Part shown: in pieces, positions 9,714 to 14,949 of the stretch
How positions within the stretch are numbered: the first letter of the stretch is position 1
Layout: each line of letters opens with the position of its first letter
Source: Bacteriovoracia bacterium
GTDB taxonomy: Bacteria > Bdellovibrionota > Bacteriovoracia > Bacteriovoracales > Bacteriovoracaceae
Assembly (NCBI GenBank): GCA_046570105.1
Contig: JBKHVI010000001.1
Coordinates: 115,013-179,012 of the forward strand
Direction of reading: 5' to 3'
DNA length: 64,000 nt
Translations under genes and position numbers: made by a program
The notes under the pieces: model-generated
The model's database searches: none
Told to the model about the DNA's origin: nothing
Seen by the model: the letters and a program-made list of their open reading frames with translations, nothing else

Positions 9714-9777
9714 GATTTATCATTATTGTTTGATATATCAAACAATAGTATCATATCATCAACACAGGAGGGCTTTC

Positions 9778-9966
9778 ATGATGATCCACCATTCAATCCA
9801 ACTTCTCAGAGAACTCCATGAACTCGAAAACGAGATCAAACTTTGGGAGGATCTTACTCGTCGAATGGGTCTTGAGATTGACTCAAGGGCCATTTTGCAC
9901 CTCTTACTCTCCAATAAAATGAAAAATAATCACACGACTTTGACGGACACTAAGATAGTTTCCTAG
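9778..9966 (+). CDS. Small hypothetical protein (62 aa)
   Basis: Strong RBS AGGAGG before ATG 9778. Confidence 0.55.
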   Translation: MMIHHSIQLLRELHELENEIKLWEDLTRRMGLEIDSRAILHLLLSNKMKNNHTTLTDTKIVS

Positions 9967-10438: not shown

Positions 10439-10467
10439 GGCCAAAAGGTGTCACTCACCTTTTGGCC
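10439..10467. repeat. REP-like hairpin at the 3' end of the RAYT gene
   Basis: GGCCAAAAGGTG-tcact-CACCTTTTGGCC, perfect 12-bp stem. Confidence 0.7.
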
Positions 10468-11077
10468 TTTTTAATGTCTCGAACAGTTTAATTTTCTTTT
10501 TATTAATATCAAACTGCCAACGTCTCAGCCCCTTGCGAATAATCGCTTCACCTTCATTTTCAATTCTCTCATTCAGCCACAGCAACTCGGCTGCCTCTCC
10601 ACCTAACTCCATATTCACTCGACTATGTAATGGAAACGGCACTCGCGAAGTGAGTGTTGAATAAGGATAGAATTCCACTCTTTCAACCATCCGCGCACGT
10701 AATGGATTTTGGTAAATATAGCGATAGACTTGATAATAATAAGCCTGATTCTCAATCAAGCTCCATTTATAGCGTCCTCCCCACAAATGATTTGTTCCAT
10801 CAGCCTTTCTCATAATTTTCACGGCCGTATTTCGCATCAATAGATGCATCACCTGATCTAGATTACATCGCGGCGTTTGAACCAACAGATGGAAGTGATT
10901 ATCCATCAAGACAAATGCATGAATACAAATCCCAAAGCGCTCTTGAACATTTTTAAGTTCATCGACAAAAATTTTCCAAACCTCGTTCATCTCAATCGGA
11001 TAGAACTGCTTGTCATTCGTTCGAGCTGTTACGTGGTAGGTATGAATATCACTGCGAATCAAAGCATTTCTCGGCAT
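10451..11077 (-). mobile_element. REP-associated tyrosine transposase (RAYT / IS200-like Y1 HUH nuclease)
   Basis: MPRxxx..YHVTAR, FVLMDNHFHLL (HUH), LWGGRY and YIYQNP (catalytic Tyr) motifs. Confidence 0.9.
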
Positions 11078-11129
11078 AATTACTCCTTGTAACCCGTTAC
11101 CTCTTGGCGCTTTTTTGCAGCACCAAGCG

Positions 11130-11950
11130 GTGTTAAAATTAAAACGGGAAGGAGTAAGCCTGAGGGATTCCCCCCAGACCTAGGTGCTTGTGACACCAAG
11201 AGGTTCACAGAGAACGTGGAACTGACAAAACATGGAGCGTGAGCATGCCCCTTCCCGCCTCTCTTGTTGCAAAAAGACGGGAAATTTTCCGAACACTAAC
11301 TATTGAATTTTCAACAGGAGTCGTCTCACTGCGTGAGAGATTTTTTCCACTCACATGTCCGTTTTTTACCCGCGACTTGTTGGAGATGGATGAGACTTAC
11401 TTCGAGTGATAAAATTAAAAAAGGGAAGAGGTAAGCCTTGAGAGATTCCTCTCAAGACCCAGGTGTGAGCACACCAAGAGGTTTAAAAAGAACATTGAAC
11501 TGGCAGAGCGGTGAACTTGAGCTACCTCTTCCCGCCTCTCTTGGTGCAAAGAGACGGGAAAATTTCTACGACTCAACTATTCAAAAAAATTCATCCATCA
11601 CTTCACTGCGTGAGAGATTTTTTCCAATCACTTGTCCGATTTTTACCCGCGACTTGTTGGCGATAGATGAGAGTTCAATCAAGTGATAAAATAAAAAGGG
11701 AAGGAGTGGGCCTGAATTATTTAATTCAACCCCAGGGTGCTGTCACACCCAAGGGGTTCACCTGAACTTGGAGCTGGATGAACGTGGAGCGTGGACCTGC
11801 CCCTTCCCGCCTCTCTTGGTGCAAAGAGACGGGAAAATTTCTACGACTCAACTATTCAAAAAAATTCATCCATCACTTCACTGCGTGAGAGATTTTTTCC
11901 ACTCACATGTCCGATTTTTACCCGCGACCTGTTGGAGATTGATGAGAGCT
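11130..11950. repeat. Tandem array of three ~277-bp structured non-coding units (11130-11405, 11406-11682, 11683-~11950)
   Basis: Anchor CTTCCCGCCTCTCTTG at 11251, 11528 and 11803; shared blocks TCACTGCGTGAGAGATTTTTTCC and TTTTACCCGCGAC. Confidence 0.92.
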
Positions 11951-12301: not shown

Positions 12302-12346
12302 CTACCTAAAAGTGTACCTAAAAGTGCATGACACCTTTTGGAAATT

Positions 12347-13582
12347 TTAGAACTTGTAAGTCATAGCGACGCGAGCGAGTAGACGGTTTGAATTCAAGAT
12401 TCCGTTACTTGGTGCTGTGTTATTGGTCGCAGTAGCAGCCGAAGTCATCAGCAATCCGTCGATAGCGAAATCACCAAACTTCAAAGTAGCACCTGAACGG
12501 ACAGATGTTGTATTCGCTTTGGTACGCTTCTTGTCTGGGTTCTGAGCGACAACGTTTGTGTTAACCAATGGCAATAGGTCTTCATCGTAGTCGTTGTCTT
12601 GCTCATTGATTATACTCTGAGAGATTGAACCACGAAGAGTCAGCCATGAAGCAGCGTCCACTTCTAAACCAACTACGACTGGAACAGCGTAATCATCAAT
12701 CGTTGCTTTGCCGTCATCTTTGGTATCAAGCTCACGCTTGTTCAACACATAAGATACTTTATAGAACAAAGTCGCTTTGTCGTTAAGCTTAGTCTCGCGA
12801 CCGTAACCCACGATAAAACGATCAGTTTGCGCATCAGCTTCACCTGTATAAGCAGGAGCTGCAGCTGTCGTTGCAACTTGAGAGACAGAACTCTCTTGTT
12901 CCCAAGCAGCGTGGCGCCAGAAAGCAAATACGCTTGCCTGATTGTCGATACGGTATGTTCCACCTAATTCGTAACCAAGCTTACCCTTGAATTCTTCTTT
13001 ATCCCCTGCACCTGCATCAAGATCGCCCTCGAAAGAGTTGATCAATGAAACGTTAGCAAAAGCTTCAAACTTGCCAGCGATAACACCTAGACGAGCTGAT
13101 AACGTCTGGCTCTCAAGATCTTCGAATGTGCCATCTGTATCATCTTTGTTTTGTGAATAAGTAAGGTTTGCTCCCCACTTAACTGAAGACTCTCCAGCTA
13201 AGAAAAGATCAAGCTGGTTATCTTGATGAATCACTCGGCGGTTTGTGACCAAGTAGCCGCGTGCTTCGTTTACAGAAGCAGATTCGCCACCGAAGTAAGC
13301 ACCAGCGACCATGTTGTTCCAGCCGTAAAGAACACCACCCTCAGCCTGTGGATTATTATTGGCGTCAGCTTTAGTTCCCGCGGCGCCATCACCACCCAAT
13401 TCAAAGATCGCAGTATCTTTGTAATTGTTAGCATGAGCTGAGTTGAGGAAAATATTACGATTATCGTTAATGTACTGTGAGCCACCGATATCTTCGCCTA
13501 AAGCGACGAGACGTGCTTTGGTTGCGAACGCCGGAGTCGCGAGGACTGCCAAGGCTGCTCCAAGAACAAGATGCTTTTTCAT
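12347..13582 (-). CDS. Outer-membrane porin-like protein (Bdellovibrionota major OMP-like), paralog 1
   Basis: Signal peptide, AFA-TKARLVALG N-terminus, C-terminal MTYKF beta-signal. Confidence 0.8.
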   Translation of the reverse strand: MKKHLVLGAALAVLATPAFATKARLVALGEDIGGSQYINDNRNIFLNSAHANNYKDTAIFELGGDGAAGTKADANNNPQAEGGVLYGWNNMVAGAYFGGESASVNEARGYLVTNRRVIHQDNQLDLFLAGESSVKWGANLTYSQNKDDTDGTFEDLESQTLSARLGVIAGKFEAFANVSLINSFEGDLDAGAGDKEEFKGKLGYELGGTYRIDNQASVFAFWRHAAWEQESSVSQVATTAAAPAYTGEADAQTDRFIVGYGRETKLNDKATLFYKVSYVLNKRELDTKDDGKATIDDYAVPVVVGLEVDAASWLTLRGSISQSIINEQDNDYDEDLLPLVNTNVVAQNPDKKRTKANTTSVRSGATLKFGDFAIDGLLMTSAATATNNTAPSNGILNSNRLLARVAMTYKF

Positions 13583-13658: not shown

Positions 13659-14798
13659 TTAGAAACGGTAAGTCATTGATACGCGAGTCATCAAGTTAGA
13701 TGAATCGATTTCACCAGCTGTACCGCTTGCAGTGTTACCGATCATACCGTCGACAGCCATATCGCCGAACTTCAAAGAAGCACCAGCAGCTACTACAGTT
13801 GTGTTAGCTTCTGTGTTCTTGTTTGAGTCAGAGTTAGCAACTGCTGCTTTAGTTTCAACTTCGTTGATCAAGATTTCTTGAGAAACTGAACCACGAAGAG
13901 TCAACCAAGAAGCTGCGTCGAACTCAAGACCGATAGTCGCAGACAAATCGCTTTCGTTATTTTCGCCATCTTCTCCAGCATCCTTAACATCGCTAGTTGT
14001 ATTTGTGTATGCAACTTTTGTGAAAAGAACTGCTTTGTCATTCAACTTGTCTTGGCGAGCAACACCCAAAGACATTTCGTTTGATTCAACGTTATTATCG
14101 CCGTCAACTTCAAACTCATTCATTCCGTAATAACCGAAAGCAGTGTAGCCGTTCCAGCTGTAAGAACCACCAATTTCAGTATCACCTTTGCGCTCTACTT
14201 CTACGTCTTGATCTTTATGATCTGTCTTACCTGTGATGCCGTACTTCAAGTAAGCAGCCCATGGGCCCTGGCTAAGACCAACTGCAAGATCCATAACATC
14301 TGTCTTAGCTTCTGTGTTTGTAGCAAGACCAGCACCGCCGTCACCAGCATTGAAGTCATCATTCTTCTGTGATGAGTAAGTCAACTGAACGCCCCACTTG
14401 ATACCAGCGTCGCCGCCGATGAAAAGATCAAGTGCGTTTGTTGCTTGATAAACGAATAGGTCACCAGCATCAACATCACCATCATCGTTAGCGTCTGTTG
14501 CAAAAGAATCAGTACCTTCGTTGTAAGAAAGATTGCGGCCCATGTGTGCGCCCCAAACCAAGTTACCAGCGTTACGGATGAATCCACCTTCGCCGTTTCC
14601 GCCGTCATTTTCTAATTCGTAAGTAACGAAATCTTTTTGGTTATTAACTTCAGACGCGTTAAGGAAGATGTTACGGTTATCTTGGATGTAGAATGAACCG
14701 TTAGTATCTTCACCCAAAGCTGCCAAACGAGCTTTAGATGCGAATGCAGGAGCAGCTAGTACAGCCAATCCAGCGGCGAGAGCGAGTTGCTTTTTCAT
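13659..14798 (-). CDS. Outer-membrane porin-like protein, paralog 2
   Basis: RBS AAGGAG, AFA-SKARLAALG; shares DAASWLTLRGS and LKFGD blocks with paralog 1; C-terminal YRF. Confidence 0.82.
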   Translation of the reverse strand: MKKQLALAAGLAVLAAPAFASKARLAALGEDTNGSFYIQDNRNIFLNASEVNNQKDFVTYELENDGGNGEGGFIRNAGNLVWGAHMGRNLSYNEGTDSFATDANDDGDVDAGDLFVYQATNALDLFIGGDAGIKWGVQLTYSSQKNDDFNAGDGGAGLATNTEAKTDVMDLAVGLSQGPWAAYLKYGITGKTDHKDQDVEVERKGDTEIGGSYSWNGYTAFGYYGMNEFEVDGDNNVESNEMSLGVARQDKLNDKAVLFTKVAYTNTTSDVKDAGEDGENNESDLSATIGLEFDAASWLTLRGSVSQEILINEVETKAAVANSDSNKNTEANTTVVAAGASLKFGDMAVDGMIGNTASGTAGEIDSSNLMTRVSMTYRF

Positions 14799-14949
14799 GA
14801 AATCTCCTTGTTTCAAAATGACGTTGGTCATTCCTAAATTAAGCAAACAAATAACTTTATACGTTAAGTGTGTAAGTGTTCTTTCTTTTTGGCAATACTG
14901 TTTTTGTTGGTTGCATTTTGCATAGGGGCAAACTCATTGGTCCTATCAA

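Follow-up and report, generated by a model that had tools for sequence, protein, structure and literature searches.

Structured-RNA cassettes in tandem beside a RAYT-like nuclease gene: a conserved family tied to one RAYT clade in Bacteriovoracaceae

The window considered here is a stretch of 64,000 nucleotides (nt) from a bacterium of the family Bacteriovoracaceae, and it contains a gene for a RAYT-like Y1 HUH nuclease adjoined by three tandem units, whose starts are 277 and 275 nt apart. These units belong to a conserved, so far uncatalogued family of structured-RNA cassettes that is tied to one clade of RAYT genes; the family we regard as real, and a function for it is what we infer below. 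From its sequence, each unit of about 277 base pairs (bp) reads as a cassette composed of a palindrome remnant, a -10 box 26 nt further on, an RNA of about 111 nt that points away from RAYT, and an unfolded spacer of about 140 nt. The spacer appears to resemble a RAYT promoter region on the opposite strand, and what a first-pass annotation of this DNA had called the constant part of the unit would be just that region. The features concerned are the following (window coordinates).

10439-10467, no strand: REP/TIR-like perfect palindrome with 12-bp arms and a 5-nt loop, overlapping the RAYT stop codon
10451-11077, minus strand: RAYT-like Y1 HUH nuclease gene, 208 amino acids (aa), HUH motif (H61-F-H63) and YxxxNP tyrosine motif intact
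11098-11107, plus strand: unit 1, right palindrome half in degenerate form, seen in the sequence, 26 nt before the -10 box, an offset fixed across the clade
11131-11139, plus strand: unit 1, extended -10-type box (TG-n-TAAAAT), from column conservation; putative promoter
11146-11256, plus strand: RNA 1, about 111 nt, with closing stem P1, hairpin H1, hairpin H2 and a loop with five A-R-C triplets, from folding and covariation
11268-11283, minus strand: unit 1, putative remnant of a sigma54-like -24/-12 element, with the -12-like TTGCA kept and the GG lost in the window lineage
11284-11373, minus strand: unit 1, unstructured spacer, with a presumed IHF-like site and A/T-tract motifs common to the upstream regions of RNA-less RAYTs
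11374-11383, plus strand: unit 2, degenerate palindrome half-site, seen in the sequence, 26 nt before the -10 box
11407-11415, plus strand: unit 2, extended -10-type box, from sequence and column conservation
11423-11533, plus strand: RNA 2, from folding and covariation
11545-11560, minus strand: unit 2, sigma54-like remnant, overlapping a hairpin earlier called invariant
11561-11650, minus strand: unit 2, spacer, unstructured by folding
11651-11660, plus strand: unit 3, degenerate palindrome half-site, seen in the sequence
11684-11692, plus strand: unit 3, extended -10-type box, from sequence and column conservation
11698-11808, plus strand: RNA 3, from folding and covariation
11820-11835, minus strand: unit 3, sigma54-like remnant, seen in the sequence
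11836-11925, minus strand: unit 3, spacer, unstructured by folding
11926-11935, plus strand: fourth half-site, seen in the sequence, with no -10 box or RNA behind it
12317-12341, no strand: degenerate palindrome copy at the 3' end of a convergent popA-like gene

The first-pass annotation had recognized the three tandem units, and its remark that units 2 and 3 are near-identical in their last part and divergent in their first is accurate (135 of 140 nt identical as against only 70 of 112 in the folded part). The phase that it gave the units had to be corrected, as the true starts are the palindrome-derived half-sites at 11098, 11374 and 11651, with the folded part beginning 69 nt from the RAYT ATG; the start coordinate that it proposed coincides with the genuine short palindrome at 10439-10467. 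Given that the fourth half-site stands alone, the array terminates at a cassette junction.

The case for an RNA is carried by the first part of the unit. Compared with shuffled sequences, this part folds with z-scores of -1.6 to -3.4 on the plus strand and -2.5 to -2.8 on the minus strand for the window units, and with means of -3.1 and -3.4, respectively, over 36 units, 21 of which score better on the minus strand. Covariance models were built from 14 units (R1) and from 36 units (R2), and in 54 hits aligned to the model (an alignment that was fitted to the tested structure and contains near-duplicates) 94.1% of 932 cells are paired and 16 of the 18 modelled pairs change on both sides, whereas slid pairings reach 42-64% and no shuffle attains the real score. 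The earlier observation that pairing is kept despite divergence is thereby borne out, and the hairpins and the enclosing stem quoted in its support are all present, save for one A-C mismatch in hairpin 1 of unit 1. RNAalifold, which had been proposed as a check, recovered only H1 on a MAFFT alignment and missed the rest, owing to register shifts. Two further proposals did not survive. One took the entire 277-bp unit for a single multibranched structure, but its ‘constant’ last ~130 nt, i.e. the spacer, does not fold (z -0.2 to -0.7, about -0.5 on the whole). The other saw a conserved switch in a competing, ‘invariant’ 3' hairpin, although unit 1 carries a mismatch there, and among 54 homologues only 16 form a tail hairpin that reaches -8 kcal/mol. 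A search of Rfam gave no match over the window units even at E<=10, and none in seven homologous loci.

How might such an RNA be made? Across the family, the palindrome halves, full at some loci and degenerate in the window, are followed by a TAnnnT hexamer at an offset of 26 nt in 43 counts; no other offset exceeds 9, and the three window units all keep this spacing. Of 53 rows, 53, 53 and 52 have the T, A and T of the hexamer, and the extended positions are G in 41 and T in 30, a pattern which we take to match the sigma70 extended -10 consensus; the first G of P1 follows the box at a distance of 6-7 nt. It is near-perfect also in the unaligned text of stand-alone copies from two other genera. 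A standard promoter scan requiring a -35 box found none at the units. The plus strand is favoured as the RNA strand by the promoter evidence, the -10 box being what stays constant.

The RNA was found in 22 genomes of one family, comprising 5 of 11 in the genus of the window, 15 of 51 in genus g36, and one each in two further genera (G042 and G151). There are one to five copies per genome, mostly at one locus, and arrays at orthologous sites comprise between 1 and 3 units. Outside the family, none of 40 and none of 127 genomes gave a hit, with filters strict enough to leave 19-29 candidates to be scored in each genome, which weak homologues may fail to pass; a protein scan and two sequence patterns gave nothing on viral contigs, and there was no blastn match in phage and plasmid collections. 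Some copies stand alone, away from any RAYT, which, together with the arrays beside HUH-defective RAYTs described below, speaks against a strict dependence on the nuclease gene. The source genome (G000) has its fourth copy on contig C55, between convergent genes, and others lie in G007 (C111, three in tandem), G042 (C56) and G151 (C232, two). The C55 copy follows what is presumably a class II ribonucleotide reductase-like gene; the G042 copy, with a long P1 stem (L024:1501-1655), sits upstream of a gene that we take to be deoC-like and divergent from a presumed permease-like gene; and the two G151 copies (L217:1-126 and 1441-1600), also with long P1 stems, flank a presumed membrane-protein gene.

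In 20 of the 22 RNA-bearing genomes the RNA adjoins a RAYT of one and the same clade, an outcome of the covariance-model search in relatives that the first-pass annotation had recommended. It is absent from 61 RAYT loci (60 of the 79 listed matches plus the second RAYT of the source genome), 46 of which were re-searched with R2, again without a hit. Among close relatives of the window RAYT, 17 of 55 loci have it (four of the 55 lie outside the clade, and many are on short contigs), as do 13 of 28 clade RAYT loci in another count. In genus g36 the RNA occurs in 15 of 29 genomes with a clade RAYT and in none of 22 without, which is a tally and not a test, the genomes being related and incomplete, and which includes G045, whose RAYT is frameshifted. 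A quick tree was built from 70 proteins, without one short row and without near-duplicate loci. Every one of the 27 RAYTs that adjoin the RNA belongs to a single clade of 56 rows (SH-aLRT 95), in which they are scattered among RNA-less rows, and this suggests an old association with losses. The RNA lies divergent from RAYT, its -10 box usually about 45-70 nt from the ATG; at some loci, with an inserted gene in between, the distance is 650-950 nt. With covariation, a link to a single RAYT clade and the co-occurrence in g36 in hand, the idea of a RAYT-associated structured RNA array, put forward as one of two options in the first-pass annotation, is supported, bearing in mind that the g36 genomes are kin and not independent. 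In G045 (L023:844-1456, minus strand) the frameshift falls in a G-run, and the adjoining RNA and promoter look intact. At six loci (L183, L186, L189, L191, L220 and L224) a gene of about 164 aa, presumably an ORF6N-type phage regulator, lies between RNA and RAYT and ends 1-2 nt before the RAYT start.

That the neighbouring gene encodes a RAYT-like HUH nuclease, as annotated at first, is confirmed. Its 208-aa open reading frame (ORF) scores 39 bits against Y1_Tnp and 77.2 bits against NF047646, just below the cut-off of 80, and only 24.6 bits against the IS200 profile NF033573 (cut-off 55), which places it in the RAYT/TIRYT class and not with IS200; the best fold match of its structure model is 4er8 (E. 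coli TnpA-REP). It combines the Y1 HUH core and catalytic Tyr with greater closeness to TnpA-REP than to IS200 TnpA, and the short inverted repeats on its flanks occur elsewhere in the genome and beside other clade loci too. Named relatives of the protein are Bacteriovoracaceae, Peredibacter among them. Genes of subclass 2.1 (TIRYT) lack canonical REPs and are flanked by terminal inverted repeats (TIRs) in the sections of the papers that treat them (PMC6006769, PMC3733652). In the window protein a helical C-terminal extension is predicted, no helix-turn-helix family matches and the GGGGWSAS TIR motif was not seen; any assignment to the subclass is tentative. The gene has a dN/dS of 0.03 against G007 and looks like a domesticated nuclease gene. 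In G002 and G010, the RAYTs (L006:830-1438 and L005:797-1438, both minus strand) have R-F-H in place of H-F-H and have also lost the conserved Asn of the tyrosine motif, and these HUH-defective proteins are nonetheless full length, with dN/dS of 0.06 and intact arrays beside them; such purifying selection likely reflects a non-catalytic role. The second RAYT-like gene of the source genome (L002:2458-3111, minus strand, on contig C8) is 40% identical, lies outside the clade and has no such RNA.

The palindrome that overlaps the RAYT stop codon belongs to a repeat family of the source genome with 7 exact copies and 31 loose ones (<=2 mismatches), some of them within ORFs; no 5' GTAG/GGAG tetranucleotide tag of the REP kind was found in the flanks of the copies inspected. 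The family forms clusters, six copies on C54 and three within 420 bp on C121, and many copies abut gene ends. Could the 277-bp unit, then, be a DNA element and not an RNA gene, i.e. a non-autonomous single-stranded DNA (ssDNA) substrate or a MITE/REPIN-like unit moved by RAYT, with the fold read as ssDNA? Palindrome halves do lie at the junctions, arrays of different length occupy orthologous sites, the GGTG/CACC stem of H2 resembles the palindrome core, and G-T pairs on the RAYT strand would suit ssDNA as well. We nevertheless judge this improbable, and decidedly so. Copies number one to five per genome, mostly at one locus, the unit ends have no terminal inverted repeats, H2 does not follow the local palindrome sequence, and the invariant -10 box points into the fold. 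Neither known type of element fits. The P1 arms lie inside the unit, some 48 nt away from the junction, and the copies are clustered where those of a MITE would be dispersed; and a unit of 270-300 bp has a single half-site where a REPIN or BIME has two inverted REPs, at a copy number far from the high one of such elements. The other option of the first-pass annotation, that of a 277-bp RAYT substrate, is not supported, for similar reasons, namely the -10 box of each fold, the unstructured constant half, the stand-alone copies, the arrays that persist beside HUH-defective RAYTs and the short palindrome that already flanks the gene.

What would the RNA do? Its loop displays five A-R-C triplets at spacings of 7, 9, 7 and 6; four of the sites read ARC in 50, 50, 46 and 51 of 53 rows, and the remaining, fifth one reads ARCTG in 35. 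The triplets are separated by 4-nt windows (two of them biased towards R-K-K-G), and the segment has no consistent pairing (mean unpaired probability 0.54, with varying folds). A small peptide encoded in the loop was considered and rejected: the in-frame stops and 1-nt deletions among the 53 rows mark the loop as non-coding. Repeated short single-stranded motifs on a folded scaffold, with an own promoter and multiple paralogues, are known from the sponges CsrB/RsmZ, CrcZ and GlmY and from the RNAs bound by HutP and TRAP. Tentatively, and as a reading that may well prove wrong, we favour cassettes that would make small RNAs showing repeated triplets to a multimeric protein, with RAYT activity or recombination at the palindromes building the arrays. 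The RNA might serve as a decoy or a scaffold in the manner of CsrB or CrcZ, although it belongs to neither. In favour of this reading we count the covariation, the constant -10 box also in stand-alone copies, the triplets in a segment that does not pair consistently, the close match of orthologous RNAs, the palindrome halves at the cassette junctions, and the fact that the genome has no long complement of the loops. A housekeeping sigma factor would transcribe the ~110-nt RNA from the plus strand; the second half of each unit would be the RAYT promoter region on the minus strand, so that the RAYT leader would be the complement of the RNA; nicking and strand transfer by RAYT at the palindromes and/or unequal recombination would duplicate and shuffle the cassettes, as proposed for BIMEs; and the H2 loop together with the loop windows would give each copy its own identity. 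The putative partner is not Hfq or Ro60; it could be RAYT itself.

Several observations weigh against this sponge-like explanation. The agreement in the -10 box is partly by construction, because those columns belong to the model. Wobble pairs and folding do not fix the strand: the H1 extension read on the plus strand has 41 A-C cells and no G-U, which alone favours the minus strand, and the uncontested pairs mix G-U (14 cells) with A-C (21 cells). The A-C mismatches may arise because G-rich and C-rich segments swap partners between two alternative folds; in most lineages the plus strand has a self-consistent, G-U-rich alternative with an extended P1 and a P3 helix, and in other lineages a four-helix form with a perfect H1 extension is predicted on it. 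Both strands may be transcribed. No partner protein was found, Hfq and TROVE (the Ro60 partner of Y RNA) being absent in five of five genomes, and although CsrA is present, GGA is not conserved, the loop-window positions that would supply its GG being G in only 20-38 of 51. A general host regulator would be expected to be more widespread than the RNA is in its two main genera, with 5 of 11 genomes in one and 15 of 51 in the other, and a sponge by itself would not explain why neighbouring copies stay different.

The minus strand carries a signal of its own. On the strand that codes for RAYT, 11 of 19 loci with a unit have a box of the type TGGC-N7-TT(T/C)CA at 193-220 nt upstream of the ATG; in related loci that have no unit adjoining the gene, the box is nearer, 26-73 nt ahead of the ATG, and occurs in 15 of 34. 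Controls on the opposite strand give 3 of 19 and 1 of 34, and the pattern itself was formulated with the data already in view. We liken the box to a sigma54 -24/-12 element; upstream of it lie a T-tract and a motif that we take for an IHF-like site. It is conceivable that from here a sigma54-type promoter reads through the element into RAYT and that the convergent sigma70 RNA pairs with the leader or interferes, a cis-antisense arrangement comparable with art200 of IS200 tnpA or Asr9 of ISPpu9, in which the fold could be that of the leader. Such a promoter would be expected to have its +1 at the far end of P1, rpoN is present in the genome and the minus strand folds equally well. All the same, this explanation seems rather unlikely to us. 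The sigma54-like variant is not enriched upstream of genes in the source genome (3 sense versus 3 antisense; canonical form 18 versus 11; 2687 ORFs), the GG is lost in the window lineage although the RNA is kept, and the stand-alone copies have no RAYT; moreover, exact complementarity requires neither multiple copies nor a conserved ARC spacing, and the ribosome-binding site of RAYT lies outside the stretch covered by the RNA. Canonical sigma54-like boxes 27-30 nt before the ATG were seen at other Bdellovibrionota RAYTs (L066, L071, L080, L082 and L215), hinting that RAYT expression may be sigma54-controlled more widely.

Copies at orthologous positions and copies within an array behave differently. 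Orthologous RNAs are 104 of 112 and 103 of 113 nt identical, windows included, with RAYT synonymous sites 52% and 68% different. Between neighbouring copies in 7 of 25 array pairs, the spacer differs by 11% and the ARC positions by 13%, as against 43% for the H2 loop and 43, 54 and 32% for the windows; these pairs were picked for spacer divergence <=25%, a choice that favours contrast, and some other pairs differ equally in the spacer. In the L223 array the scaffold from P1 to the H2 stem has no differences and the spacer 2 in 70, while the loops differ. Such variable windows raise the question of whether RAYT binds the RNA as a cofactor, with the H2 loop and the 4-nt windows picking sites of cleavage or insertion in place of the tetranucleotide guide that, in the relevant part of PMC8266576, Y1 enzymes use within the DNA to select their cut sites. 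In its fullest form, the RAYT clade and its RNAs would be a ribonucleoprotein, an RNA-programmed HUH nuclease that chooses ssDNA sites by means of the loop windows and itself builds palindrome-delimited, integron-like arrays of RNA cassettes. The confinement of all 27 RAYT-adjacent loci to one clade (at SH-aLRT 95 in the quick tree) speaks for such a partnership, as do the array contrasts just given and the selection on HUH-defective RAYTs, which suggests a role in binding. The cofactor idea, and with it the programmed nuclease, is quite unlikely in our estimate. About half of the clade RAYTs lack this RNA (though some carry other structured elements), the biased windows look like a degenerate repeat, window 2 is in part taken up by cis pairing with the H2 loop, and no targets were found in the own genome: besides paralogues, a search with the loops, for which 4-nt windows are too short, returned only matches of 13-19 nt at E>=0.38 and no long one, and the array pairs were, as said, chosen for low spacer divergence.

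The pairing within the RNA deserves a closer look. The H2 loop is often complementary to window 2, with parallel changes in several arrays; a generic test gave p of about 0.04-0.05 on the plus strand and 0.02 on the minus strand, and an anchored test devised post hoc gave p=0.006, with 14 of 28 Watson-Crick. With statistics this modest, a pseudoknot of 3-4 bp between the two is a lead only. Of the 38 distinct H2 loops, 22 fit N-U-[U/G]-N-N-R (shuffles: mean 3.5, maximum 11), the triplet differs between copies of one array, and some lineages are predicted to adopt a four-helix form, all of which calls to mind a cloverleaf-like decoy, its H2 loop imitating anticodon loops, that would absorb tRNA-cutting toxins or tRNA-binding factors met in predation. 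We hold such tRNA mimicry to be very improbable indeed, as the loop pattern was defined post hoc, 20 of 38 loops have 6 nt and not the 7 of an anticodon loop, the stem is of 4 bp and nearly invariant, T-loop and CCA end are both lacking, ARAGORN gave no hit, and the pattern would be explained equally well by a U-turn loop that docks in cis.

Clade RAYTs without this RNA (called type A below) have other elements in the same slot, again with a half-site, a -10 box and a stem-closed fold; those of types B, C and D were folded singly. Type B (L222/L099, L230/L101, L225) is a ~90-nt four-helix fold with a short loop on the same promoter chassis, and its similarity to the type A model is weak (R2 15-20 bits for two of L222, L230 and L225). 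Type C (L192:1-1700, minus strand, with L244, and L242) is a different stem-closed element of ~120 nt in tandem, four copies about 320 nt apart in L192, with a full palindrome and a -10 box per junction; an element possibly related to it (L005:1804-1925, plus strand) sits between two type A RNAs in G010. Type D (L185, L239) joins a half-site and -10 box to a long hairpin fold. Taken together, they suggest that the palindrome-promoter-RNA cassette may be a general unit. Small ORFs with a CxxC...EHI-type motif lie just after palindromes near RAYT at L110, L214, L222, L225 and L230; they presumably resemble HNH nucleases and are possibly protein cassettes of the same arrays. PADLOC matched none of three proteins.

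How does the array compare with known systems? The nearest geometries are those of IS200 and ISPpu9, neither of which is portrayed, in the parts of the sources that concern us, as a tandem, self-promoted, palindrome-bounded cassette. IS200 likewise combines a Y1 HUH gene with sense and antisense transcripts that overlap at the 5' end (putative ones in our case), a structured 5' RNA of 111-125 nt with its antisense art200, and near-immobility (PMC12594629); in our case, by contrast, the RNA is encoded apart from the ORF in a cassette of its own, tandem, with its own putative promoter and fixed-spacing ARC repeats, and occurs also without a nuclease. ISPpu9, too, has a REP-tied small RNA (Asr9/Ssr9) upstream of the transposase and antisense to a long structured 5' leader, but it is a mobile multi-copy element with a single upstream RNA, and arrays or stand-alone copies are not described in the portion of PMC8450116 devoted to it. 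With REPtrons/BIMEs and TIRtrons the locus shares a Y1 nuclease with short flanking inverted repeats that are found elsewhere in the genome and cluster in tandem; unlike them, it has no GTAG tag, and its 270-330 bp unit carries a promoter and an RNA gene instead of a short linker, no such RNA being described in the relevant sections (PMC8266576, PMC6006769, PMC3733652). A literature search found no description of this RNA; large RNA-motif surveys list motifs in their supplements, so an unnamed entry could exist there.

The RNAs of the CsrB and HutP type differ in their motif (GGA or AAN, not A-R-C); the present RNA has no Rfam match, is linked to a nuclease and occurs where Hfq is absent. The association bears on why RAYTs persist as single-copy, vertically inherited genes, for here a clade is tied to arrays of structured-RNA cassettes, with putative promoters of their own, whose boundaries are the palindromes of that clade, and selection maintains even a catalytically defective gene next to its array. 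If the windows steered cleavage, RAYT would be an HUH enzyme guided by RNA, and a domesticated RAYT would have a concrete function for its host; if not, it would still be a new RNA class with a putative repeat-binding protein, in predatory bacteria without Hfq.

Two minor observations concern the rest of the window. A perfect 24-bp palindrome (9724-9747) upstream of a short ORF near 9780 is a candidate repressor site. On the other side of the array, the minus strand carries a PopA-family porin-like gene (12347-13582, NF053618 match) adjoined by a similar-looking second gene (13659-14846).

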